Positions 2 to 14,128 of a stretch of 20,000 nucleotides of DNA are shown here, piece after piece. This stretch comes from an uncultured virus (IMG/VR IMGVR_UViG_3300043447_000658) (Duplodnaviria > Heunggongvirae > Uroviricota > Caudoviricetes). The notes below the pieces were generated by a model. It did not search any database. It was not told where the DNA came from and worked only from the letters and a program-made list of their open reading frames with translations. The stretch is taken from the IMG/VR virus record IMGVR_UViG_3300043447_000658, positions 52,795 through 72,794 of that record. The stretch is one strand, 5' to 3'. Made by a program: the position numbers and the translations under genes. Numbering within the stretch: position 1 is the first letter of the stretch; each line of letters starts with the position of its first letter.

Positions 2-973
2 TAATGCAGAAACGTATGATTCGTAATCAAGACCAACTATTTGTATGTTCCACCCATCTCGACTTAATGGCCAAGTTGCAAATTCACTTTGTAATTCTGT
101 GACCGCTCCATCATATAAATCTGTTGGTATTCTAAACGCAGCGGTATATTTGGGGGTCGATTCTCTATCTAATAATACGGTCTCTAATTCATCAAGACTA
201 TTGAAAAATTCTTCAGTTACACCGTTATTTGGTCTAATTAAATAATTGTCAGTGTAGATTGAATATCCACCGAAACAATATCCTTTTACTTTTAATGTGA
301 TAAAACCATCATTATCCGGTTCTTCGTATGAAACAATTTCATATGTTGAACCGCTAAGGTTATCTACTACATATTTTGTATATGATGAATAAAAATCTCT
401 ATACGAATTTGTTGATTGTAAAACTTCAACCCCTTGAGGTCTTTGAATAACAATATCAAATGGGTTATAAATTAAAGATTTTTTAAATTGGAATTGTGTG
501 GTGTTTGAAATTGGGTCGTAACCAAGAGTTGCTCCCGTTAATACCGCACTAACATTCGTAGATGAAACCGGTGAATCAACATCAACTAATAATGCTGCAG
601 GGAAACTTTCAATAATATTCCCAACCGCACCATTTAATCTTGTTGATAAGGAACCAAATAAAGATTTTGACGCATCGTTTTTAGAATTATGAAATTTAAT
701 CTTTTTACTTCTATCAGGTAAATTAATACCTGTAGAGTTATTATCATAAATTGAATTCGTTTCTTCTTTTAATGTATCTAAAGTAAGGAAATCAGAAAAT
801 GGTTGTGTGTGAAAAGTCTTACTGTCTTTTTCAGGAATTACTCTATCAATAAGGAATTGGGTATTAGCCAATTGACTAGAACCATCGGTTATTTGTAAAC
901 CGATGAGCTTGTCATTGAACGTTTCACCACCACTAGCCGCCTGATATGGGACCTTTCTTGTTATTTTAGCCAT
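2..973 (-). CDS. Putative virion/baseplate-region structural protein, 3'-partial (runs off the left window edge, at least 324 aa)
   Basis: Absent from the ORF track because it has no stop in the window. ATG at 973-971 overlaps the upstream gene's TAA (TAATG). Manual translation is open to the edge: MAKITRKVPYQAASGGETFNDKLIGLQITDGSSQLANTQF...WNIQIVGLDYESYVSAL. Function inferred from context. Confidence 0.85.
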   Translation of the reverse strand, partial: MAKITRKVPYQAASGGETFNDKLIGLQITDGSSQLANTQFLIDRVIPEKDSKTFHTQPFSDFLTLDTLKEETNSIYDNNSTGINLPDRSKKIKFHNSKNDASKSLFGSLSTRLNGAVGNIIESFPAALLVDVDSPVSSTNVSAVLTGATLGYDPISNTTQFQFKKSLIYNPFDIVIQRPQGVEVLQSTNSYRDFYSSYTKYVVDNLSGSTYEIVSYEEPDNDGFITLKVKGYCFGGYSIYTDNYLIRPNNGVTEEFFNSLDELETVLLDRESTPKYTAAFRIPTDLYDGAVTELQSEFATWPLSRDGWNIQIVGLDYESYVSAL

Positions 974-1881
974 TATTGAGTTATAACATCAAAATTTAAT
1001 GTTTCGTCGATATTATCATTCTTCTCTCTTATTTCGTATAGTGTCTCGTTAATATCGTCTTTAATTTCGTATAAGTTAAACTGCTTATAGATATTATTAT
1101 TTTGGTCATAAATCGTGTAAATTCCATCAACAACTGACTTACTTTGATTACCGTAAAGTGCGTGTGCCAATGTTGTTGCATCGTGTTCTACCATTTCAAC
1201 TTCTAACATAACAGGATTAAAATGTGTATTTGTTAGAATGATATTTTGATTTGGTTGACCAATGAATGGTATGGTATTAGGTCTACTAGACGGTGAAGAG
1301 CTTGGTGTTAATGTCAAAAACATTAAGTTTGTTGTTATATCAGAATATCTGTATCTAATTGCTTTTTGTGATGAATTTGTTAAATTCGATAACACAGGTT
1401 CACAGTAAAAAGATGAGGTAACAATTCTAAAAAAATTAGGAATCTTAGCACCTGAATCATCCAAGTACTCAATTCGGTAACCCACTAATCCTTGAGGAGT
1501 GAATTTGTTAGTATCTGCAGCGTCGATTTGAGAGATGTCAATAATCAATCCTCTTACGGACGGTAATGATGACAAAACACCACAATCAGAAACAACTGTT
1601 CTGATTTGTTTTGGTCTTAAGTACAACGTATATATTCCTAACTCAGAGAATCTTGATGATTCTAATTTTAGATTATACATACCACCTAATAGTTCAGTAC
1701 CTGAATTACCTCCTGTTGAATCATTGTGGAATACGGGTGTTAATATATCTTGTGAGTTATCTATCTTCTCAAATTGAACTTCCGTACTAGCGGTTCTACC
1801 CGAAACGAAGTGATAATATATATCAACATCGGCCGGTGAAACGTCCGCAGGTCTTATAGTTCCGTAACTTCCTACTGCCAT
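973..1881 (-). CDS. Hypothetical phage protein, probably structural (302 aa)
   Basis: Long ORF with an A-rich leader, co-oriented with the baseplate module and coupled to the next gene by TAATG. No catalytic motif recognised. Confidence 0.8.
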   Translation of the reverse strand: MAVGSYGTIRPADVSPADVDIYYHFVSGRTASTEVQFEKIDNSQDILTPVFHNDSTGGNSGTELLGGMYNLKLESSRFSELGIYTLYLRPKQIRTVVSDCGVLSSLPSVRGLIIDISQIDAADTNKFTPQGLVGYRIEYLDDSGAKIPNFFRIVTSSFYCEPVLSNLTNSSQKAIRYRYSDITTNLMFLTLTPSSSPSSRPNTIPFIGQPNQNIILTNTHFNPVMLEVEMVEHDATTLAHALYGNQSKSVVDGIYTIYDQNNNIYKQFNLYEIKDDINETLYEIREKNDNIDETLNFDVITQ

Positions 1882-1897
1882 CTTTTATTATTTATCT

Positions 1898-1904
1898 ATA
1901 AATA
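1898..1904 (-). promoter_or_regulatory. Candidate late-promoter motif TATTTAT upstream of the 302-aa gene
   Basis: Minus strand reads TATATTTATAGATAAATAATAAAAG-ATG. The same heptamer precedes two other structural genes. Confidence 0.4.
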
Positions 1905-1910
1905 TAATTT

Positions 1911-2849
1911 TTATTGTTTTCGTACTTTAAAATATCCATTTCCATAAACATCTAATTCTCCTGTGTTGTCCATTTCGGTCAATCTGAAGTTTCTTTCCAT
2001 AACTCCCATCTGTCCTCTTTCAACAAAAACATCTGAAAAAATTTGTGGGTCGTCCACAAATCCTAAAAAATGTTCATTTCTCGTAATCATTCCGTTGTAG
2101 ATTTCGTCTTGAAAAAATGTTTGTGTGGTTCCTGAAGTCACTCCTGATATATGTGTATATCCATCTGGGTAATCTCTATAAACCAAACCATCAATTGTAT
2201 ATCCTGAATATTCTAAAGTAACTGTTACTCCTGAGTAACCCGCATTTGTTCCATATAATTTTTTCTCATCAATTCTACTTTTGCCAATACCCAAAAAGGT
2301 TACTGTGGTACTATTAGTGGCACCTGTTAAAGTTCTATAGTCTTGTAAATAAGTTTGTGAGTAGGTATCCCCCTCACTATATGGAATGTCAAAAGTTAAT
2401 TCTCCTAAGTCAGTTGGATAACCAAAAGATTGAACAAAAGGTATTTCTATTGTCTTTTGTACCTTTCTAACATCCCAAGGTGAATTTACCGTAACCTCAA
2501 TTGTGTATGTTCCGTTACTTGAATATGTGTGTCCTGTGCTTGGTAAACTCACATTATCAATGTTCATAACCGGCATTGTGAGTGTACTTGTTGCACCATC
2601 TCCCCAATTAACTGTGAAGATTGCATCGATTAATGCTCCGTATCTTGTTGTGTTGACAGTATTATAAACTGTAACTGAATTACCATTACCTTTATATGTA
2701 AAATTACATATCTGTTGTGTTTGACTAATATCACCGTCAAAACCAATCATAATACCTAAATCCTTAATACTTTGTTCTAAAAATATTGGTAGGTTATATG
2801 TTTGACCTGTGTCAGTTTTTAATATTGTGTGTCTAATAGTTGTGTCCAT
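1911..2849 (-). CDS. Putative virion protein with a PKD/Ig-like domain (312 aa)
   Basis: PKD signature FTVNWGDG...GHTYSSNGTYTIEVTV; Thr/Gly-rich; TAATG overlap with the upstream gene. Confidence 0.8.
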   Translation of the reverse strand: MDTTIRHTILKTDTGQTYNLPIFLEQSIKDLGIMIGFDGDISQTQQICNFTYKGNGNSVTVYNTVNTTRYGALIDAIFTVNWGDGATSTLTMPVMNIDNVSLPSTGHTYSSNGTYTIEVTVNSPWDVRKVQKTIEIPFVQSFGYPTDLGELTFDIPYSEGDTYSQTYLQDYRTLTGATNSTTVTFLGIGKSRIDEKKLYGTNAGYSGVTVTLEYSGYTIDGLVYRDYPDGYTHISGVTSGTTQTFFQDEIYNGMITRNEHFLGFVDDPQIFSDVFVERGQMGVMERNFRLTEMDNTGELDVYGNGYFKVRKQ

Positions 2850-3655
2850 TATCCTCCAGATAGTATTTCATAAAATTTTATGGGGTCTCCCGATTCACCA
2901 ATTCTGGTTCCTGTGGTTCCTGAATATCTAAACACTTGATAAGAATAATCTGTCCTGTCTATGGTTACCTTATAATATAAATCTCTATACTCTAAAACTG
3001 AAGCGTTAGTTGCCAATGATGTGTTTGAAAAGTTTAAAACTGTTCCATCTTCACCATTAAAAAATCTAGCCGTCATATAAAATGTTGTTCCTGTTAGCAT
3101 AGTTCCTCTGAACGCATCGTCATCTTGGAACCAAAACAGATACATATTTTCTTTATTTCTGTAATTTGAGCCGTTGAATATTGGTACTTTTATATAATCG
3201 TTAAATCCTGTATAAAAAACTTTCTCACCTAATGGTAATGAAAGATTTTTTGCAAAAACTAATTTTCTATTCGTTCTGTCGGGATTTTCACCATCAGGAA
3301 CAATAAAAAATTCCAATCTAAAAAATGTTTTAGTTGTTTGAATTAATTGTTTAGCATTTTCTTGATGGTCAATACCAATTAAGGAATAGTCCAATCCACC
3401 ACTATGTGTTCCACTCTGATTGTAGAAATAAAAATAAAACCAAATGTCTGATTGAGTATCGGTAGAATGTGATGTGATGCCAGAATAAGGTTTATGTATA
3501 AACCTCATAGTTTCGTAATTATCAACCGGATTAATGATTGTCCTTACTGTTTCATTTTCAAATTGTTCTAAAGCATCTTCTCTCCCTAAATCAGGTTTAA
3601 AGTTGGTTTCCAAATTAAAAAATATATTATCTCTAATGTTTTTTAAAACTTTCAT
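2849..3655 (-). CDS. Hypothetical phage protein, probably structural (268 aa)
   Basis: Aromatic-rich ORF with TAATG overlaps at both ends, inside the structural module. Confidence 0.8.
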   Translation of the reverse strand: MKVLKNIRDNIFFNLETNFKPDLGREDALEQFENETVRTIINPVDNYETMRFIHKPYSGITSHSTDTQSDIWFYFYFYNQSGTHSGGLDYSLIGIDHQENAKQLIQTTKTFFRLEFFIVPDGENPDRTNRKLVFAKNLSLPLGEKVFYTGFNDYIKVPIFNGSNYRNKENMYLFWFQDDDAFRGTMLTGTTFYMTARFFNGEDGTVLNFSNTSLATNASVLEYRDLYYKVTIDRTDYSYQVFRYSGTTGTRIGESGDPIKFYEILSGG

Positions 3656-5454
3656 TAACAGTTTTTACTTGTGTTTGAATTATTTCTATCTAATCTGTTA
3701 TTTTTATTATTATATCTATTAATAAATGCATTAAAATCAAAAATACCATCAGCTTTGTGTTGATAATTTTTTTCATTTCTTATATAGAAATTAATATCGT
3801 TCCTAACATAGTGTGTGTTGTTAAGAAACGGATAGTCTACACCGAATCCTAAGTCATCTGAATATCCGTAATCATACACATCTCTCCATTTCCATACATT
3901 CTCAAACGGGAAGTATCTTGCGTTTTGTGGTAGATTTTCGATGTCGGGTGTTGATGATGTTTCGATGTAAGGTGAAAGTTCTCTAATTTTAACTCGGTAA
4001 TGTGGTTGATATAATACTCCGTACATATTTGTCGAAGTTGCTCCTGAAAACCCTTCAACTGTAACCGATTGGTTAAAATTGAAAATACTTGTTGGGTTTG
4101 TTAATCTATACATCGATTCTGAAATAACCCTTTCTTTTATTGTCGATGGATTATATTCAATAAACGCACCTGTCAATACCGTACCGACAGATATTGTATT
4201 TCCACTGGTGAATGTGATTCCGCTTTTTGTAAATGATGTACCTAATCCTAAACCAGACTCGTACGGTGGTTGAGTTTTAATTGAACCATCAAAGTGGTTA
4301 TCAATCCAAGTATTATGTAGATTAAATTTCCAACCTACTTTTGGTGGATAGTCAAAATAACCATTACCATTTCTAAATAATATTGTTACATATAAATCCG
4401 TAGGTTCATAATTTAAATTGTTGGTTAATCCTGTTAAAACAAATGGTTCTTTAAAATCATAAAGAACTGATTCCATTCTATTTCTTTCAACCAATACATC
4501 ATTAGCTCCTGATATATTCTCAAAAACTAATTTTCTTTCGTCTTCAAATATTGGACTTTCAAATCCTGCCTTATCTAAAATATAATCTGCCGAATTAGTT
4601 GCCGTTTTATGTTTGTGTACATAGTAAGTTGATGTTGTTCCTGAAATGTTTTTGGTGTCGATACATCTTTTACCTGTAATTAAAGTGTTATTAAATGTTG
4701 TAGTACCTGATGGTATTTGGGATTTTAAAATATCTAAAACATATAATTCAGAATTATAATATTCATTACCAATTGAATTTATATAATATGGATATCCATT
4801 TAATATAATAAACTCACCTTCACTCATTCCGTGGTCAACAGGACTTGTCAGTCTATAACTCGCATTATTATCGGTAATTCTAAATGGTATGCCATTACCA
4901 CTAACAAAACTTAATGTTGTATTTCCCGATAAAGTATATTTCATCGGATAGTTTTCATCGTGGTCGTACACATATGATACGTGAATGTTCCAATTGTGAT
5001 ACGGAGCATTCATTGGTGTAATCAATTGGTGAGTTATGTCTCCTGTTTTTGTTACGGTGATTCCTGTAAATGTACTTAAGTCTGAAACATCTATATCATT
5101 AGGTTTTTCTCTGTACACATCATTTCTTAAAAACGCGAATTCGTTATATGGTAAGTAACCATCAAATTCTCCGTCATCACCATCACCAACTAGTGCTAAC
5201 TCTTCAGACAATGGAAGATAACTTGATAATCCACTGTACATATTTCTGAACACCATCTTTATTTTACCATACAACTTATATCTTTTACTGTCATTTCTTT
5301 CTTGACCAAATAATTCATTAATATCTAAAATAATATCTCTATCATCATTAGTTAATAAACTCTTACCTTCCTCAAAATTAACTTGGAGGATTTGGTCTTC
5401 GGAAGATGCTTTGTGAAACCTTTTTTCAGGTAATATAATTTTTCTCTTTTCCAT
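3655..5454 (-). CDS. Putative baseplate/tail-associated structural protein (599 aa)
   Basis: Long Asn/Thr/Tyr-rich ORF with TAATG overlaps at both ends, downstream of the gp25/gp6-like genes. Confidence 0.8.
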   Translation of the reverse strand: MEKRKIILPEKRFHKASSEDQILQVNFEEGKSLLTNDDRDIILDINELFGQERNDSKRYKLYGKIKMVFRNMYSGLSSYLPLSEELALVGDGDDGEFDGYLPYNEFAFLRNDVYREKPNDIDVSDLSTFTGITVTKTGDITHQLITPMNAPYHNWNIHVSYVYDHDENYPMKYTLSGNTTLSFVSGNGIPFRITDNNASYRLTSPVDHGMSEGEFIILNGYPYYINSIGNEYYNSELYVLDILKSQIPSGTTTFNNTLITGKRCIDTKNISGTTSTYYVHKHKTATNSADYILDKAGFESPIFEDERKLVFENISGANDVLVERNRMESVLYDFKEPFVLTGLTNNLNYEPTDLYVTILFRNGNGYFDYPPKVGWKFNLHNTWIDNHFDGSIKTQPPYESGLGLGTSFTKSGITFTSGNTISVGTVLTGAFIEYNPSTIKERVISESMYRLTNPTSIFNFNQSVTVEGFSGATSTNMYGVLYQPHYRVKIRELSPYIETSSTPDIENLPQNARYFPFENVWKWRDVYDYGYSDDLGFGVDYPFLNNTHYVRNDINFYIRNEKNYQHKADGIFDFNAFINRYNNKNNRLDRNNSNTSKNC

Positions 5455-8400
5455 TACGTTAAGTCTGTTGATTTAAATGCACCCTTAGGTCCAAACCTAT
5501 CAATAAATTTATCGAGACCAGTTTTACCAGGTTTTAATCCAAAGTGAAACATAAATGGAGTTGATAGGATTTGTTTAGTTCCACTATAATAATCTTGTGT
5601 TCTTCTAATGAAGAAATCTGTAGATGTTGTCCAAGGAATTCCATCCCAAGTACCTGCATTACCATAACGAGTATATAAAGTTCCTGAAGATGGATTGGCC
5701 AATGTTCCTGAAGTTACTTGTAAAACAGTATACCCAGGATATTGTGAATCGTATTGATGATATTCGTTTCCTGTGATTCCTGAAATAACAGCATCATAAG
5801 CAAACCCTTCATCATCAACGACGTTTAATGTCGATACCGAGGTTCCTGTAAAATTATAAGTTATTGGTAATAACAAATATTTGTCTGAAGAATCGTCAGT
5901 GGTTCCTGTCACATTATATGCGTATGTCATACCTTGTAATGGTTGTACTTGAACGGTTGAGATATCCCAAGATTGGTCGTCGAGAGTTTCAGTATTATAC
6001 GCGCCAAATCCTGTACCTTTTTTATCCCATAAGAAGAATGGTACCGGTTGTGATGATTCAGTTAATCGACCTTGTATTTGTGTTACTCCATCATTTGCAA
6101 TGTGAGTCGGTTCATTTAAACAAGCCCTTACTCTTTCACCATCTTCAGAAAATTCCATAGTGATTGGTAATGGTCCCCAAACTCCGTTTCTTTTAAAAAC
6201 GTCAGGATATAATTCAGGGTCTAATATTTGATAGCTATATCCAATATATTTTGGATTTTGTAAATCAAATTGTTCAATACCCACCTCATTATTGATTGAT
6301 ATTAATTGTAGTAAATCTCCATCGAAAGCACTTCGAATTCCATTATTATAAAATCCATTATTATCAAAGAAACTTCTTAAGTCGAAATTAGCATTACTAA
6401 CATCCATTCTGTAGTTAATTGCCATACCAAGAATCTCACCAAAATCTTTATAAGAAGTTGGTCCTATTTCTCTTGACACAGAGCAGTTAGGGTCAAGATT
6501 TGGGTCTACACATATTTCTCTTATAAATTCATCTCTCGGACCTAAATCAACAATAGTTGTTGGTCTATTGATTCTTTTTCTCGAACCGTTAAATGTTCTT
6601 CCCCATACACCTGTACTATTATTATATGATGTTGCTCGATAATAATAATGTGATTCACTTTGGTTTGTTTCTAAATTAGTTTGTACTGTTCTTCTAATTA
6701 GTTCTTCACAACAAGCCGATTTGGACCAAAATAAAAATCTTTTTTGTGTTTCGAAAGTAAAGAAATATAAAGACCCTGATAACCAATTATCCACAAATGA
6801 ATAGTTAACGACTCCCGAACAAAATAATTTAGACATACGTCTACGTCTTCTATATTCTTTCATTATATTAATCACTCTACGATTTGACATAGTGCCGGGA
6901 ATCATATAAAAAATACCATTGGTAAATTCAGATTGACCCGATGGGGTTCTTGGTGTATAGGTTTCTCCATCGTATATTGTTGGTAGTGGTTTATTACTAC
7001 CATCAACGTCCGAAATTAAAGTTGCTTCTACGTCCATACCGGCAGTATATTGTAACGGTGTTTTTTCGGTTCTATTTGGTGCAACATAATATTTCTGAAC
7101 TAAAGATTCGTCATATGGTGTGTCATAGATTGCACAACCCTCCTCCAATATTGCTGTTGTGGTTGTTTCAACTGATGAGGCATTTTTATCTCTAATTACT
7201 GCAGTGTATGTTATTGTTTCATTAAACAATCCTGCCGTGTCATTAAAAGTTATTGTGGCTCCTGATGTGAAAATAGTTGTACCAGACAAAAGAACCCCGT
7301 TACTACTTGTTGTTAAAATATAATTTGTTTGATTATTTAAAAAATTTGTTAAGTCACTTGGAACTGTTGCTCCTGAACATATTCCTGTTGGGTCAGGGTT
7401 TGAGAATACAAAATTACTTGCAGTTACAGTTCTTGGTGATTCGGTAGACGAACCTTGAATGGTTACCGTACCAACCTGACAAAAGTCAATAGCGTTACCC
7501 AATCCACCCACAGTACCATATTCATTATCTTTATTACATTCAAGGCAAGAAGGATAATCAATTAAAAATAATTCTCTTTGTCCACTATCTTGAATTCCAT
7601 ATGCGTATCTTCTTAACGCCCTACTAACAGACTTAATCGGCCAGAAATTAGTTGCATCTGAAAATCTATGAAATATTTTAGCAACTGTATTGTTAAAAAC
7701 AAAACCAGATACTGTTGATAATTGTTCAAAGAATAACAATATATCAGCAATTAATAATTTAATTGTGTAGTTTCTAAAACCAAAATTAACCGGTGGTGTA
7801 ACGATTGAATTTTCACAATCAGACTCTCTTGGTGGTGCAATTTCTTTCAATCCCAATAATTGACCTGAAAGAGTTGATAATGAATTTTTAAAGTATGAAT
7901 TATGAAATGATGATACCGTAAAAACTTTATTATATGTAAATCTATAAAAATAATCTTGTGGTACGTAGAATCCATCAACAGTATTTAATATTAAACTTAA
8001 CGCTTCCGGTGGGTAATCTTTATAGTTATTGGACCAAGCGTACGACATATCAATTCTTGTGGTGTATTCTCTAATATTCGGTACTAATATTTGAGCAGTA
8101 CCTTGTTGTTGTGTTGTAAATCTAAAACGATAACATCCTGATGTTGGTATACCTTTGTTTGGGTCATTGGAATATTCGTTTTCACCAAATTCATTTGTGT
8201 AAACAAAATCCATATTCATTGGTAATGACACAATAAATGAACCGTCATCGGTAATATCTTCTTTTACATCATACACTTCTAAAATCGGTCTGTTGTTGGA
8301 GTCGTATTCCGCAGTAAAACGAATCATTTCTATTTTACCCGCCTTTGTCGTTAAATCACATTTTTTGTTACTATCTCTTTTAATACTACAATTTGCTTTG

Positions 8401-9200
8401 ACTCCTGCCCTACCGTCAGTATATGTTCCCCCAATAAGATAAGCCTTTGGTTCAATTTTAACTCCTTGGTCTGATAAATCAAAATCGGTTCTTGTTAAAC
8501 CAATTTCACATAAATCTTCAGAACCCCAAAAAGGATAAACCTCAATGGTTTTTCTAAATGTTTTGATTTGTGGAAGTGAGTCAATATCAACACTAGCCTT
8601 AAATTCATAAGCTGATTTAAATTCCTCTAAACCAAAACCTTTTCTTAAGTAATCATCAGGTCTTAATGAGAAACAACTAATATCTGACAAATCCACGTCA
8701 CACACTATGATTTGTTCACCTAATGGTACACCCCAAATCATAAAGTCACCAGCACTATTTGTTTTTACGGTGTATTTGTAATATTTTTCATACACCTCTA
8801 AAACTTCTTCTCTGTCTAAAATATCTGTTTGGTCAGGGAATGTTCCTGTTGCCGCGTGTCCGCTATGTTGTCTTCTTGCAGGTAATAAATTATATCGATA
8901 ATGATTATCGTCTTTAACTGAAACTTCAGTATATGGGTATAACGCCGATATTACAGGGTCGTTTACATCATCATCGTCTAATGGTACGAAAATTGAAACT
9001 CGAGCGTTTGGTACTCCAAAACCATTATTTACGGTAAGTCTACCACAAACAACACCATAGTCAGCACATAACGATGTGTATACATCCCTTTGGGATAATT
9101 TTAAAGACAACAATTCCAATAAATCGAAATCTTGTTTGACTTCAAATTTAATGTATTGGTCTTCTCCAATGTTGGTATGAATTCTATGTTTTTGTATCAT
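5454..9200 (-). CDS. Large Cys-rich putative baseplate/tail protein (1248 aa)
   Basis: Directly follows the gp6-like gene. N-terminal YGVVCGRL..NNGFGVPNARVSIF...VKTNSAGDF resembles a carboxypeptidase-regulatory/transthyretin-like beta-sandwich. About 20 Cys and Thr-rich segments. Confidence 0.8.
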   Translation of the reverse strand: MIQKHRIHTNIGEDQYIKFEVKQDFDLLELLSLKLSQRDVYTSLCADYGVVCGRLTVNNGFGVPNARVSIFVPLDDDDVNDPVISALYPYTEVSVKDDNHYRYNLLPARRQHSGHAATGTFPDQTDILDREEVLEVYEKYYKYTVKTNSAGDFMIWGVPLGEQIIVCDVDLSDISCFSLRPDDYLRKGFGLEEFKSAYEFKASVDIDSLPQIKTFRKTIEVYPFWGSEDLCEIGLTRTDFDLSDQGVKIEPKAYLIGGTYTDGRAGVKANCSIKRDSNKKCDLTTKAGKIEMIRFTAEYDSNNRPILEVYDVKEDITDDGSFIVSLPMNMDFVYTNEFGENEYSNDPNKGIPTSGCYRFRFTTQQQGTAQILVPNIREYTTRIDMSYAWSNNYKDYPPEALSLILNTVDGFYVPQDYFYRFTYNKVFTVSSFHNSYFKNSLSTLSGQLLGLKEIAPPRESDCENSIVTPPVNFGFRNYTIKLLIADILLFFEQLSTVSGFVFNNTVAKIFHRFSDATNFWPIKSVSRALRRYAYGIQDSGQRELFLIDYPSCLECNKDNEYGTVGGLGNAIDFCQVGTVTIQGSSTESPRTVTASNFVFSNPDPTGICSGATVPSDLTNFLNNQTNYILTTSSNGVLLSGTTIFTSGATITFNDTAGLFNETITYTAVIRDKNASSVETTTTAILEEGCAIYDTPYDESLVQKYYVAPNRTEKTPLQYTAGMDVEATLISDVDGSNKPLPTIYDGETYTPRTPSGQSEFTNGIFYMIPGTMSNRRVINIMKEYRRRRRMSKLFCSGVVNYSFVDNWLSGSLYFFTFETQKRFLFWSKSACCEELIRRTVQTNLETNQSESHYYYRATSYNNSTGVWGRTFNGSRKRINRPTTIVDLGPRDEFIREICVDPNLDPNCSVSREIGPTSYKDFGEILGMAINYRMDVSNANFDLRSFFDNNGFYNNGIRSAFDGDLLQLISINNEVGIEQFDLQNPKYIGYSYQILDPELYPDVFKRNGVWGPLPITMEFSEDGERVRACLNEPTHIANDGVTQIQGRLTESSQPVPFFLWDKKGTGFGAYNTETLDDQSWDISTVQVQPLQGMTYAYNVTGTTDDSSDKYLLLPITYNFTGTSVSTLNVVDDEGFAYDAVISGITGNEYHQYDSQYPGYTVLQVTSGTLANPSSGTLYTRYGNAGTWDGIPWTTSTDFFIRRTQDYYSGTKQILSTPFMFHFGLKPGKTGLDKFIDRFGPKGAFKSTDLT

Positions 9201-11084: not shown

Positions 11085-11540
11085 TTATATGTTAATAATT
11101 ATAAAGTCTGATACTGAAAATGCTCCGTTATTTACTGTATAATCAAGTTTAACTTTAGCCGTATAAGGTTTACTCGAATAATCAGAAACCCTAAACAATC
11201 TTTCGTCTTCGTCTTGTGTATACGTTTTTGTTTCATCAGGGTCATTTTCCGCTGACATTATGTTTAAAGATTTGATTTCTACATTTGGTATAAATTTTCT
11301 TATACCCTCACGAATCTCCTCCTCAATATGATTGAATGTTACCACATCATTTTGTTCAAATATGTATTCATATAACCTTGTCCCAAAGTCAGGTAAGTAA
11401 TATCTCGTACCCTTTCTTGTTAAAAGTAGGTGTATGAGATTAGCTCTTACTTCTCTTTGTGGAGACTCGGTAGTTTTTAAGTAATCTCCGTATCTACTAT
11501 CTCTAAATGGATAGTCAATTCCATATGATATTAACGCCAT
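11085..11540 (-). CDS. Baseplate protein, T4 gp25 / gpW-like (151 aa)
   Basis: gp25-family signature GIDYPF...NLIHLLLTRKGTRYYLPDFGTRLYEYIFE. Confidence 0.9.
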   Translation of the reverse strand: MALISYGIDYPFRDSRYGDYLKTTESPQREVRANLIHLLLTRKGTRYYLPDFGTRLYEYIFEQNDVVTFNHIEEEIREGIRKFIPNVEIKSLNIMSAENDPDETKTYTQDEDERLFRVSDYSSKPYTAKVKLDYTVNNGAFSVSDFIIINI

Positions 11541-11544
11541 ATCA

Positions 11545-11551
11545 ATAAATA
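11545..11551 (-). promoter_or_regulatory. Candidate late-promoter motif TATTTAT
   Basis: Minus strand reads TATATTTATTGAT-ATG. It lies just downstream of a strong terminator, where the structural operon would need its own promoter. Confidence 0.45.
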
Positions 11552-11571
11552 TAAACTAAACTAAAATGGGA

Positions 11572-11602
11572 ATAAATAAAAAACCCAACCGAAGTTGGGT
11601 TT
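11572..11602 (-). terminator. Intrinsic terminator ending the replication/nrd operon
   Basis: Minus strand AAACCCAAC-TTCG-GTTGGGTTT-TTTATTTAT: perfect 9-bp stem, C(UUCG)G tetraloop and U-rich tail. Confidence 0.9.
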
Positions 11603-11607
11603 AATAT

Positions 11608-11697
11608 GGTGTCTTGATATTCACCCCCTGTATTCTCGAGACCTGGAAACTCAAGGTACGCCTTGACGACATTAGTACTTTGAGGGAGCCTCCCATT
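11608..11697. ncRNA. Putative structured non-coding RNA/DNA element of unknown class
   Basis: About 49% GC (44/90 by hand) against very AT-rich spacers elsewhere. Stems GTCTTGA/TCGAGAC (11611-17/11636-42) and CTCAAGGTAC/GTACTTTGAG (11650-59/11675-84); alternative hairpin TCAAGG-TACG-CCTTGA; possible loop-bulge pseudoknot. Confidence 0.55.
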
Positions 11698-11701
11698 ATC
11701 T

Positions 11702-14128
11702 TTATGAACCACAACCCTCACACTCAAATGGTGAGTCGGTTGGTTTCATACTTAAAGCAGTTTCATTTTGTTCAAACAAAATCGACTTAGTCGGTAATTC
11801 AACATTTTGTGTGTTAGCTGATGTCGTTTCCACTTTTTGTGGTGCTGACATTTCCACACCCAAAGTTTTAATTGCATCAACCGCCGCTCTTGTTCTTAGA
11901 TAGTACATACCCGTTTTTAAACCTGATTTCCATCCAAAGATATGTGCTGCCAATAATTTTGGTTTGGTTACATTATCTATAAACAAGTTTAATGACTGAG
12001 ATTGGTCGATGAAAATAGACCTGTTTGCTGCCATTTGTAAAATTCTCTTTTGAGACATTTCCCAAACCGTCTTATAAACTTCTTTTAACTCTGTAGGTAT
12101 TTCAGGTATGTTTTGTACTGAACCATTTTCAAAAATTAATTTGTTCTTGATTGTATCATTCCACATACCAACTTTTAAAAGGTCATTTACTAAATGTTTG
12201 TTGATTACTACGAATTCACCACCTAATGTTCTTCTAAGATATAGGTTGGTTGTGAATGGTTCAAACGCTTCGTTATTACCCAAAATTTGTGCGGTAGATG
12301 CTGTTGGCATCGGTGCAACTAATAATGAGTTTCTAACACCATAGTTTACCACTTCTTTTCTTAGAGACTTCCAATCCCAACGACCTGATAAATCTTTATC
12401 TGTTTTGTCCCACATTTGGAATTGGAATTTACCTTTCTCAATTGGTGAACCAACAATAGATTCATAAGGACCTAACACTTTAGATAAATCTTTTGAAGAT
12501 GTAAGTGCCGCAAAATAAATTGTTTCAAAGATTTCTGTTTGTAATTTATCCGCTTCCTCACTTTCAAAAGGAATACTTAATAGACAAAATACATCAGCCA
12601 ATCCCTGAACCCCCAAACCAACAGGACGATGTTTGAAATTTGAACGTTTTGTTTCTTCGGTTGGGTAAAAATTTAAATCGATTACGTTATTCAAGTTCTT
12701 TACGACTTGGTAGGTATATTCATACAATAGTTCGTGATTAAACTCACCATTGATAATATACTTAGGTAATGCGATTGATGCCAAATTACAAACCGCTTGT
12801 TCTGTTGGAGAGGAGTACTCAAGTATTTCGGTACATAAGTTTGATGACTTAATTGTGCCTAAGTTCTTTTGATTTGATTTATAGTTTGCAGGGTCCTTAT
12901 ACAACATATAAGGTGTACCTGTTTCAATTTGTGCAGTTAAAATAGCGTCCATTAACTTTCTTGCTTTAACCACTTTTCTTGCCTTTCCTTCTTGTTCATA
13001 TTGTTCATATAAACGAGTAAATGCTTTGTCTTCAGGACTATCATAAGCATCTGATAAACCCGGTGCTTCGTCAGGAGAAAATAGTGACCAATCACCATCA
13101 CTCTCAACACGTTGCATAAACAAATCAGGTGTCCACATAGCCAAGAATAAATCTCTAGCCCTCATTTCTTCCTTACCGTGATTCTTTCTTAAATCGATAA
13201 AATCGAAAACATCAGAATGCCAAGGTTCCAAATATATTGCAAATGAACCTTTACGTTTACCTCCTTGGTTTATCCAACGGGCAACTTCATTGTATGTTTT
13301 CATCATTGGAATTAAACCGTCAGATTCTCCGCCTGTTCCTTTAATATATGAACCTTTAGCACGAACATCGTGTACGTGTAATCCAATACCACCAGCCCAC
13401 TTAGAAATCTTTGCAACGTCTTTGATAGTATCAAACAATCCATCAATATCATCACCTTTGTTACCAATTAAAAAACAAGATGACATTTGTGGTCTACGTG
13501 TACCAGCATTAAATAATGTAGGTGTTGCGTGAGTATAAAAGTGTTGTGACAAGTCATCATAAATTCTTAACGCCATTTGTACATCACCTTTACAAATACC
13601 AACGGCAACCCTCATATACATATACTGAGGTCTTTCTACAATTCTGTCACCAATTTTCAACAAGTACGAACGTTCTAAAGTTTTGAATCCGAAATAATCG
13701 AAATCCAAATCTCTATCCATATTAACCGCACTATCAATAACTTCTCTATTTTCCATTACAAAACTATGAACATCGTCAGAAATCAATGTTGACTCTTTAC
13801 CTGTCTTAGGTTCAATAAAAGAATGTAGTTCTTTGATACATTGTGAAAACTTTCTTGGTGTTGATTTATGTAAATTAGACACCGCTATTCTACCCGCTAA
13901 CTTAGCATAATCAGGGTGAGTTGTAGTCATCTGTGCAGCGGTTTCTGCTGCCAATTTATCCAATTCGATTGTTGATATCCCGTCATAAATTCCTTGAGTT
14001 ACCTTTAAAGTAATATATGTTGGGTCAACGTATTCCATATTTAAATCGTGACATAAAGCACTAATACGTTTAGTGATTTTGTCATATCTCATTTCTTCTA
14101 ATTCACCGTTCCTCTTTTTAACTTTCAT
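11702..14128 (-). CDS. nrdA: Ribonucleoside-diphosphate reductase class Ia, alpha subunit, with N-terminal ATP cone
   Basis: MKVKKRNG ATP cone; ATPTLFNAG, SSCF, SNLCTEI (thiyl Cys), VCNLAS, APMPTAST, GMYYLR; C-terminal CEGC redox pair. Confidence 0.98.
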   Translation of the reverse strand: MKVKKRNGELEEMRYDKITKRISALCHDLNMEYVDPTYITLKVTQGIYDGISTIELDKLAAETAAQMTTTHPDYAKLAGRIAVSNLHKSTPRKFSQCIKELHSFIEPKTGKESTLISDDVHSFVMENREVIDSAVNMDRDLDFDYFGFKTLERSYLLKIGDRIVERPQYMYMRVAVGICKGDVQMALRIYDDLSQHFYTHATPTLFNAGTRRPQMSSCFLIGNKGDDIDGLFDTIKDVAKISKWAGGIGLHVHDVRAKGSYIKGTGGESDGLIPMMKTYNEVARWINQGGKRKGSFAIYLEPWHSDVFDFIDLRKNHGKEEMRARDLFLAMWTPDLFMQRVESDGDWSLFSPDEAPGLSDAYDSPEDKAFTRLYEQYEQEGKARKVVKARKLMDAILTAQIETGTPYMLYKDPANYKSNQKNLGTIKSSNLCTEILEYSSPTEQAVCNLASIALPKYIINGEFNHELLYEYTYQVVKNLNNVIDLNFYPTEETKRSNFKHRPVGLGVQGLADVFCLLSIPFESEEADKLQTEIFETIYFAALTSSKDLSKVLGPYESIVGSPIEKGKFQFQMWDKTDKDLSGRWDWKSLRKEVVNYGVRNSLLVAPMPTASTAQILGNNEAFEPFTTNLYLRRTLGGEFVVINKHLVNDLLKVGMWNDTIKNKLIFENGSVQNIPEIPTELKEVYKTVWEMSQKRILQMAANRSIFIDQSQSLNLFIDNVTKPKLLAAHIFGWKSGLKTGMYYLRTRAAVDAIKTLGVEMSAPQKVETTSANTQNVELPTKSILFEQNETALSMKPTDSPFECEGCGS

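Follow-up and report, generated by a model that had tools for sequence, protein, structure and literature searches.

A conserved RNA element with a predicted doubly knotted fold in the nrdA–gp25 spacer of an uncultured phage

What does a phage keep in the one long gap of an otherwise tightly spaced gene block? This question is raised by a stretch of 20,000 nucleotides, here called the window, which forms the end of a 72.8-kb record of an uncultured virus (IMG/VR IMGVR_UViG_3300043447_000658; Caudoviricetes) with a completeness rating of 22%. The main genes of the window all lie on the minus strand and encode SSB, a UvsX-like recombinase, an exonuclease, DnaB, NrdB and NrdA, followed by baseplate proteins; five large open reading frames behind the baseplate genes (973-9200) have no PHROG match. 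Relatives of this phage reach 310-324 kb and have tRNA arrays, and ARAGORN finds 0 tRNA or tmRNA genes in the window phage's own record.

The spacer and the predicted fold of its RNA

An earlier reading, made from the letters alone, had singled out an unusually long spacer, given as 160 nt, between nrdA and the baseplate genes, holding a block of about 49% GC next to a terminator. These observations hold. The flanking genes are annotated as nrdA and a gp25-like baseplate wedge gene, and the spacer measures 161 nt (11541-11701), the longest of 13; the remaining 12 gaps among the 14 main genes range from -4 to 53 nt. Positions 11608-11697 have 48.9% GC, against 33.4% for the window, and an intrinsic terminator was located beside this block, at 11602-11581 on the minus strand. 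The setting is as follows.

11702..14128, minus strand: nrdA, large subunit of ribonucleotide reductase (RNR), the upstream neighbour, whose transcript would carry the RNA (gene calls and annotation)
11574..11602, minus strand: intrinsic terminator, separate from the RNA and kept where the RNA is absent (sequence and relatives)
11085..11540, minus strand: gp25-like baseplate wedge gene, the downstream neighbour, with no link to the RNA shown (gene calls and annotation)

The spacer holds a copy of a conserved RNA of about 65-90 nt, for which comparison with relatives predicts a doubly knotted fold composed of these parts, from 5' to 3'.

11611..11695, minus strand: the whole structured RNA, core plus closing hairpin P3, in wiring form A (covariation in relatives)
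11690..11695, minus strand: P1 5' strand, partner 11644-11649 (covariation)
11684..11689, minus strand: PK1 5' strand GCUCCC, immediately 3' of the P1 strand, partner 11623-11628 (covariation)
11680..11683, minus strand: conserved UYAA junction (alignment; partly fixed by the search patterns)
11671..11679, minus strand: P2a, an optional small hairpin present in 47 of 155 cores among the matches listed (inserts of 9-13 nt)
11667..11668, minus strand: PK2 5' strand CG, partner 11659-11660 (pair counts)
11651..11666, minus strand: P2b hairpin of 6 bp; the first two bases of its 4-nt loop supply the 3' strand of PK2 (covariation)
11650, minus strand: junction G between P2b and P1, a G in 150 of 155 cores among the matches listed (fixed by the pattern in two scan sets)
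11644..11649, minus strand: P1 3' strand (covariation)
11636..11642, minus strand: P3 5' strand, partner 11611-11617 (covariation)
11629..11633, minus strand: conserved AUACA linker, in 149 of 155 cores among the matches listed (AUAMA fixed by some patterns)
11623..11628, minus strand: PK1 3' strand GGGGGU (covariation)
11620..11622, minus strand: conserved GAA after PK1 (alignment)
11611..11617, minus strand: P3 3' strand (covariation; one RNA-library contig ends its alignment at 11611, a weak sign)

An alignment of 47 copies from the nrdA slot, modelled with P1, PK1, P2a, P2b and P3, has 96.8% of its cells paired and 10 of its 28 pairs changed on both sides, a level reached by no shuffle. 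Several pairings that the sequence-only reading had drawn for the minus strand reappear in this model. Its outer stem UGGGAG/UUUCCA is P1, which covaries, is 99.6% paired and turns A-U into U-A in 20 rows; its second hairpin GUCUCGA/UCAAGAC is P3 (94.2% paired, both-side changes in four of seven pairs); and the kissing loop or pseudoknot proposed between GGGGU and GCUCC is PK1, 6 bp of GCUCCC/GGGGGU that are 100% paired (A-U 29, G-C 11, G-U 7). Its 10-bp central stem CUCAAAGUAC/GUACCUUGAG, 81.9% paired with both-side changes in one of ten pairs, gives way to the P2b hairpin UCAAGG/CCUUGA, which is 96.5% paired and has such changes in three of six pairs, or five of six in a wider set. Within the twin GAAUA to which it had drawn attention, AUA and GAA persist and the remaining letters are not kept; non-canonical pairing is predicted for the AUACA linker and GAA. 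The optional P2a shows U-A replaced by C-G in 7 of 47 rows. RNAalifold offered an alternative to PK1 (columns 10-12 with 20-22), which was rejected: 9 of 47 rows disrupt its pair 10-22 or have a gap there, and 0 rows do so for PK1.

Wider scans yielded at least 155 distinct cores, parsed from 402 loci that overlap between scans. Further de-duplication left 104 cores, and 76 of these were aligned (59 of the short type, the window copy and 16 of 45 of the insert type). In this core alignment 99.0% of cells are paired, a figure that is inflated, as is the apparent invariance of letters, because the patterns fixed many letters and the parser demanded pairing in P1, PK1 and P2b; 12 of 19 pairs are changed on both sides, in a count that enters shared changes of related sequences more than once. 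As high a level was found in 0 of 500 shuffles, and slid controls were 34-63% paired. PK2 and the identity of compensating partners were under no selection by patterns or parser. This short knot joins the dinucleotide just ahead of P2b to the first two bases of the P2b loop and is paired in 154 of the 155 cores among the matches listed (AG/CU 75, CG/CG 46, GG/CC 29, wobble 4, mismatch 1).

Two wirings of the outer helices surround the one core, with 83 copies in form A, 69 in form B and 3 ambiguous (155 cores among the matches listed), by an automatic assignment in which copies embedded in tmRNA fit neither form well. In form A, to which the window copy belongs, the AUACA-PK1-GAA loop is closed by a hairpin on its 3' side; in form B, the stretch following GAA is paired to the 5' flank, and AUACA is preceded by a small hairpin of its own. 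Model R2 matches the window at 11619-11694 with 66.6 bits, the window copy itself being part of the model's alignment. This copy is slightly drifted: its P1 is topped by a G-U (1 of 76 rows), its P3 contains a C-A, and P2a has a mismatch.

Two checks proposed with the sequence-only reading came out differently. Covariation analysis of nrdA–gp25 spacers found that P1, PK1, P2b, PK2 and P3 covary in relatives, and folding energy, once the terminator is left out, does not go beyond shuffles (z -0.63 on the plus strand, +0.37 on the minus strand). The nested part of the model has -10.8 kcal/mol in the window copy, against -19.2 kcal/mol for the minimum-energy structure computed without pseudoknots. 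The case for the RNA rests on covariation.

The strand is indicated by wobble pairs. Read as minus-strand RNA, the 76 cores give 1261 Watson-Crick, 166 G-U, 3 A-C and 12 other cells, and this excess of G-U over A-C leads to rejection of a three-hairpin cloverleaf that had been drawn for the plus strand. The arm TCCCATT of that cloverleaf occurs in 8 of 40 element-bearing spacers, and its CCATT part in 32 of 37 element-free spacers. Furthermore, 58 of 58 tRNA and tmRNA genes within 600 nt of the element (26 loci) lie on its strand. Strand bias, co-orientation and the 7 cores within tmRNA among the matches listed argue against both earlier suggestions, that of an antisense RNA and that of an ssDNA origin or primase signal. 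A small open reading frame across the element (61 aa) was rejected because indels of 1 and 2 nt occur among relatives. Stop-codon read-through was also rejected: the next in-frame stop lies two codons on in the window, and the spacing varies.

Presence, loss and genomic settings

A gp25 search confirmed 315 stretches, of which the best 80 were used; the 77 of these with enough upstream DNA were compared at the nrdA slot, and 3 were dropped. The module is present in 40 of the 77 and absent from 37 (best 80 of 315), mostly with the terminator intact in the absentees, and a model search of 15 loci picked as element-free gave no match. The RNA is dispensable, as 37 of 77 relatives lack it at this slot. 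On a gp25 tree of 48 distinct rows, presence and absence require 12 changes, at least 7 of them forced by well-supported branches, and one pair of loci with 99.3% identical gp25 consists of L041 without the element and L049 with it. The module is closer to the window copy than the coding flanks are in 37 of 37 loci, with a mean of 87% vs 66% for the nrdA end and 71% for the gp25 start. Three partial records (37-60% complete) without the element at nrdA have none elsewhere either (0 of 3).

Some copies at the nrdA slot are reduced. About 15 variants have lost or replaced P2b and PK2, and P1, PK1 and P3 are retained in some; PK1 is broken as well in L191 and L201, and compensated PK1 pairs are kept in L175, L285, L044 and L211. 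Such copies probably represent, for the most part, decay of an optional gene, and a second, simpler role is also possible; a purely structural role would likewise explain the compensated PK1. A divergent subtype (L044:2816-2924 and L211:423-532) keeps P1, PK1 and P3 but has another hairpin, whose 9-nt loop is common to both contigs and whose stems are exchanged throughout; two scans for this subtype returned only those two contigs.

Several observations concern the slot itself. An AT-rich TATATTTAT-type motif precedes gp25 in the window (11545-11556) and in nearly all relatives, whether the RNA is present or not; this TATATTTAT-type motif is possibly a late promoter or translation signal. In five loci (L016, L017, L023, L051, L087) the terminator is swapped for hairpins of repeated CGACAC/GTGTCG words, sometimes duplicated. 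At least three types of RNR gene, differing in their C-termini, replace one another upstream of gp25 (L018, L020, L053, L060, L345, L729), and the neighbouring genes stay constant. G813 has no match to the window's nrdA or nrdB.

The earlier proposal of an undescribed phage RNA from the nrdA 3' UTR is supported as regards an undescribed structured RNA and fails as regards a tie to nrdA, because the element is found in many uncultured phages and in many other settings. Among the 155 cores of the matches listed, 56 lie closely behind RNR genes, 42 no more than 300 nt from a tRNA or tmRNA gene, 7 inside tmRNA and 50 elsewhere; with 99 of the 155 listed cores in other settings, this is not an nrdA-specific 3' UTR element. 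Its distance to neighbouring tRNAs is not fixed. A Pfam search of 87 of 96 flanking proteins found no family in common; the families met in the flanks include HNH three times, metallophosphoesterase twice and WYL once. The GC content of the flanks spans 24-68% and is at least 45% in 12 of 149 cores among the matches listed, which suggests hosts of several groups.

In three loci (L476, L488, L645) the module lies behind the tag frame of a phage tmRNA. Aligned with related tmRNAs that lack it, it appears as an insertion of about 75-85 nt; it is absent from two of five aligned phage tmRNAs, one of which has the next pseudoknot in common, and it is the most conserved block among the three module-bearing tmRNAs. 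Being the most conserved block there, the module has evidently been kept while tethered at both ends. These three tmRNAs are about 430-475 nt long, with tag frames of very unequal length that end in AA, and ARAGORN misplaces most of the tags. In L588, L607 and L621, ARAGORN reports a second or permuted tmRNA behind a first tmRNA-like start, about 480 nt downstream of the motif. In L698 and L699, the sequence just 3' of the motif begins much as RNase P RNA does at its 5' end, in loci too short for an Rfam match.

The element also occurs in bacteria: 2 of 401 genomes searched in a small-genome phylum (probably Patescibacteria) carry it, as do 3 of 61 and 1 of 41 relatives. Three of these bacterial copies adjoin tRNA-Val and tRNA-Phe genes. 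In one locus (L745:1313-1500), tRNA-Val and the motif are separated by an incomplete second copy of the tRNA-Val 3' half, as at an integration site. Of 401 genomes from the phylum of G002, 0 contained the pattern. A GTDB scan gave 53 pattern matches, only one of which (L316) was scored by the model, and two queries of the INPHARED phages gave no match. Model R2 has one match in each of eight virus records known to carry a copy and one in the window's own record, including one per record in four of four records at least 90% complete, although R2 matches per record do not equal copy numbers. One match per record fits a gene with a diffusible product rather than a repeated cis signal.

Signs of expression come from a promoter-like box and from RNA libraries. 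In 30 of 149 cores, exactly 13 nt separate the end of a TAnnTTTG box from P1, and 40 of 149 have the box within 40 nt, against 6 in a control window (all among the matches listed). TAnnTTTG matches the Bacteroidota promoter consensus, which suggests this host group and a transcript start at the outer helix. In L464, the box is followed by the module and, shortly after, by tmRNA. Seven RNA runs contained small shares of the region, and contigs from four of them were aligned. Contig X1 (181 nt, depth 4.9) covers the end of nrdA and all of the element (11611-11788), with 3 letters unaligned past the P3 end; this is a weak sign of co-transcription with nrdA and of an uncut core, from one study in which DNA carry-over is possible. 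Contig X2 stops at 11690, the end of the P1 5' strand (one study), and X3 and X4 lie outside the element.

Comparison with known RNAs

At the gathering threshold of Rfam 15, a search also proposed in the sequence-only reading, the window has 0 matches, the best E value being 0.5, on the terminator part. In 20 motif loci, Rfam finds tRNA and tmRNA only, and at E up to 5 in five loci it places nothing on the motif. Identity as a tRNA or tRNA-like RNA was rejected: ARAGORN reports no such gene in the record, and the ACCA that follows P3 in the window is not kept, being ACUA or ACAA in most relatives.

In HDV-like ribozymes, the GG after P1 pairs with L3, and a 3-bp P3 carries a 7-nt loop. The new RNA resembles this family in its small size, in a predicted double pseudoknot whose short knot is wired differently from P1.1, and in a similar order of P1, P2, P3, P4 and a linker before the last strand, but it has no linker between P1 and the long pseudoknot, and a 6-bp hairpin with a 4-nt loop replaces the 3-bp P3 and 7-nt loop of the ribozyme. 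Moreover, its 2-bp knot pairs before the hairpin and not with a GG after P1; the bases after P1 vary, with no constant GG, and P1 is 5-7 bp long, the sequence 5' of it being paired in form B. According to PMC10879173, ribozymes of the HDV-like/theta group often lie beside phage tRNA genes, as does the new RNA, and their catalytic C is the first position of J4/2. In the AUACA linker, the C is fourth, not first, and AUAAA or AUAAC stands in its place in 4 of 155 cores among the matches listed.

The pk2-pk4 region of tmRNA (RF00023) is where 7 cores among the matches listed are found in phage tmRNA, behind the tag frame, but the new RNA is an insertion there and mostly stands alone. Its absence from two of five aligned phage tmRNAs, and that of the pattern from 401 genomes of the phylum of G002, speak against a standard tmRNA part. 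The SAH riboswitch aptamer (Rfam RF01057) has a comparable layout: a P1 strand, a pseudoknot strand, a hairpin domain, P1 closure, an A-rich linker and the pseudoknot partner, in about 65 nt. The new RNA differs from it in having no Rfam match, other conserved bases, an extra 2-bp pseudoknot and no expression platform, and in its position, which is 3' of genes or amid RNA genes and not in front of SAH genes. Phage decoy RNAs exist, for instance pseudo-ToxI repeats directed against type III toxin-antitoxin systems. These are likewise small pseudoknotted phage RNAs that would bind a host protein, but the new RNA is not tandem, has no Rfam antitoxin match and occurs in hosts of differing GC.

The candidate viral structured RNAs of Fremin 2023 (PMC10690425) share an IMG/VR intergenic source and the size range, and the motif may be an unnamed entry of that candidate set; it was not found in main-text passages and four supplement files. 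Passages of PMC8040213 hold nothing relevant to it. A literature search, with most subscription papers outside its reach, found no description of the motif. On comparative evidence, this is a real and widespread RNA class that is absent from Rfam. New compact double-pseudoknot RNAs with conserved junction bases are often ribozymes or ligand-binding RNAs.

Possible functions

Comparison of sequences establishes how the RNA pairs, which strand it is on and how far it has spread, and also that it has been inserted into tmRNA and is patchily present. The function that we tentatively favour, with less than even confidence, is that of a trans-acting binding RNA, a decoy for a conserved host factor carried on abundant transcripts. 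It would be an optional phage small-RNA gene, present once per genome searched, with a predicted compact double pseudoknot. The RNA would be made as a passenger of an abundant transcript, namely the nrdA mRNA up to its terminator, tRNA arrays, a tmRNA precursor or tmRNA itself, or alternatively from its own promoter; the lack of a fixed neighbour points to such supply from whichever abundant transcript is at hand or from its own promoter. In the fold, P1 and PK1 would form one stack, against which AUA and GAA would dock, leaving UYAA, PK2, the P2b loop and the junction G to form the binding surface. The outer helices would merely hold the core, and their rewiring would be tolerated. The host factor bound would be a protein or a small molecule. 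That the RNA occurs once per genome, lacks a fixed neighbour and favours highly expressed transcripts may indicate an RNA needed in quantity and acting by binding, a step to which we give the same guarded credence. The dispensability of the RNA at the nrdA slot and the reduced copies without P2b and PK2 weigh against this reading.

The single copy and the tRNA and tmRNA neighbourhood also fit a ribozyme, the main rival. A new small self-cleaving class would trim nrdA mRNA, tRNA and tmRNA precursors and would split tmRNA when embedded. Although we consider this somewhat unlikely, a size of about 65 nt, two pseudoknots and conserved unpaired junction bases agree with it, as does the strand order P1, PK1, P2b, hairpin, AUACA, which is like the HDV order. 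The periphery comes in two wirings, and natural rearranged forms are described for hammerhead and twister ribozymes in PMC10085705; copies adjoin phage tRNAs, as theta ribozymes do (PMC10879173), and single copies stand beside HNH and WYL genes. Cleavage is harder to reconcile with the passage of X1 through the whole uncut core (11611-11788, depth 4.9, DNA carry-over possible), with one match per genome instead of one per tRNA, with variable spacing to the tRNAs, with a linker C that is not the first base and is altered in a few intact copies, and with 0 known ribozymes at the Rfam gathering score in 20 motif loci. The fuller proposal of a new structural ribozyme class with a rewired periphery, occurring behind genes and among tRNAs, whose insertion would yield a two-piece tmRNA without gene permutation, is slightly less probable again, and an RNA sponge for an immune signalling nucleotide is less likely than that.

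A cis-acting stability knot that would block host exonucleases and shield its own transcript is improbable. Such a role would suit the terminator found behind 42 of 47 window-type cores, the reduced forms that retain P1, PK1 and P3, and the pseudoknot position occupied in tmRNA, but a terminator stands behind only 15 of 108 short-type cores (both counts among the matches listed), and the conserved unpaired bases, the 2-bp PK2 and copies that have paired ends and open a transcript, or that lie between tRNAs, would be left unexplained. The patchy presence, with 12 gains or losses on the 48-row gp25 tree, would be natural for a small insert, mobile or neutral, or for a signal in the DNA such as an ssDNA origin or primase site; one match per genome, G-U wobbles kept on one strand, constant co-orientation with tRNAs, occurrence inside tmRNA and conservation above the coding flanks make this very improbable. 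A riboswitch governing read-through from nrdA into the baseplate operon is scarcely credible, even with a strand layout like that of the SAH riboswitch and a terminator directly behind: no RNA strand overlaps the terminator, no expression platform overlaps the aptamer, terminator sequences vary freely and remain where the RNA is absent, and many copies lie beside or within stable RNA genes with no regulated gene behind them.

This short RNA comes with at least 155 natural variants that have built-in compensatory pairs, and is readily testable by in vitro transcription. Copies ahead of phage tmRNA and embedded in it, and others between the tRNAs of small-genome bacteria, suggest that large phages carry, along with their tRNAs and tmRNA, a further RNA that has so far gone unrecognised. 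If catalytic, it would represent a further ribozyme class and offer a new way to make tmRNA in two pieces; if it acts by binding, it would reveal a host target that is titrated by RNA in phages of several host groups.
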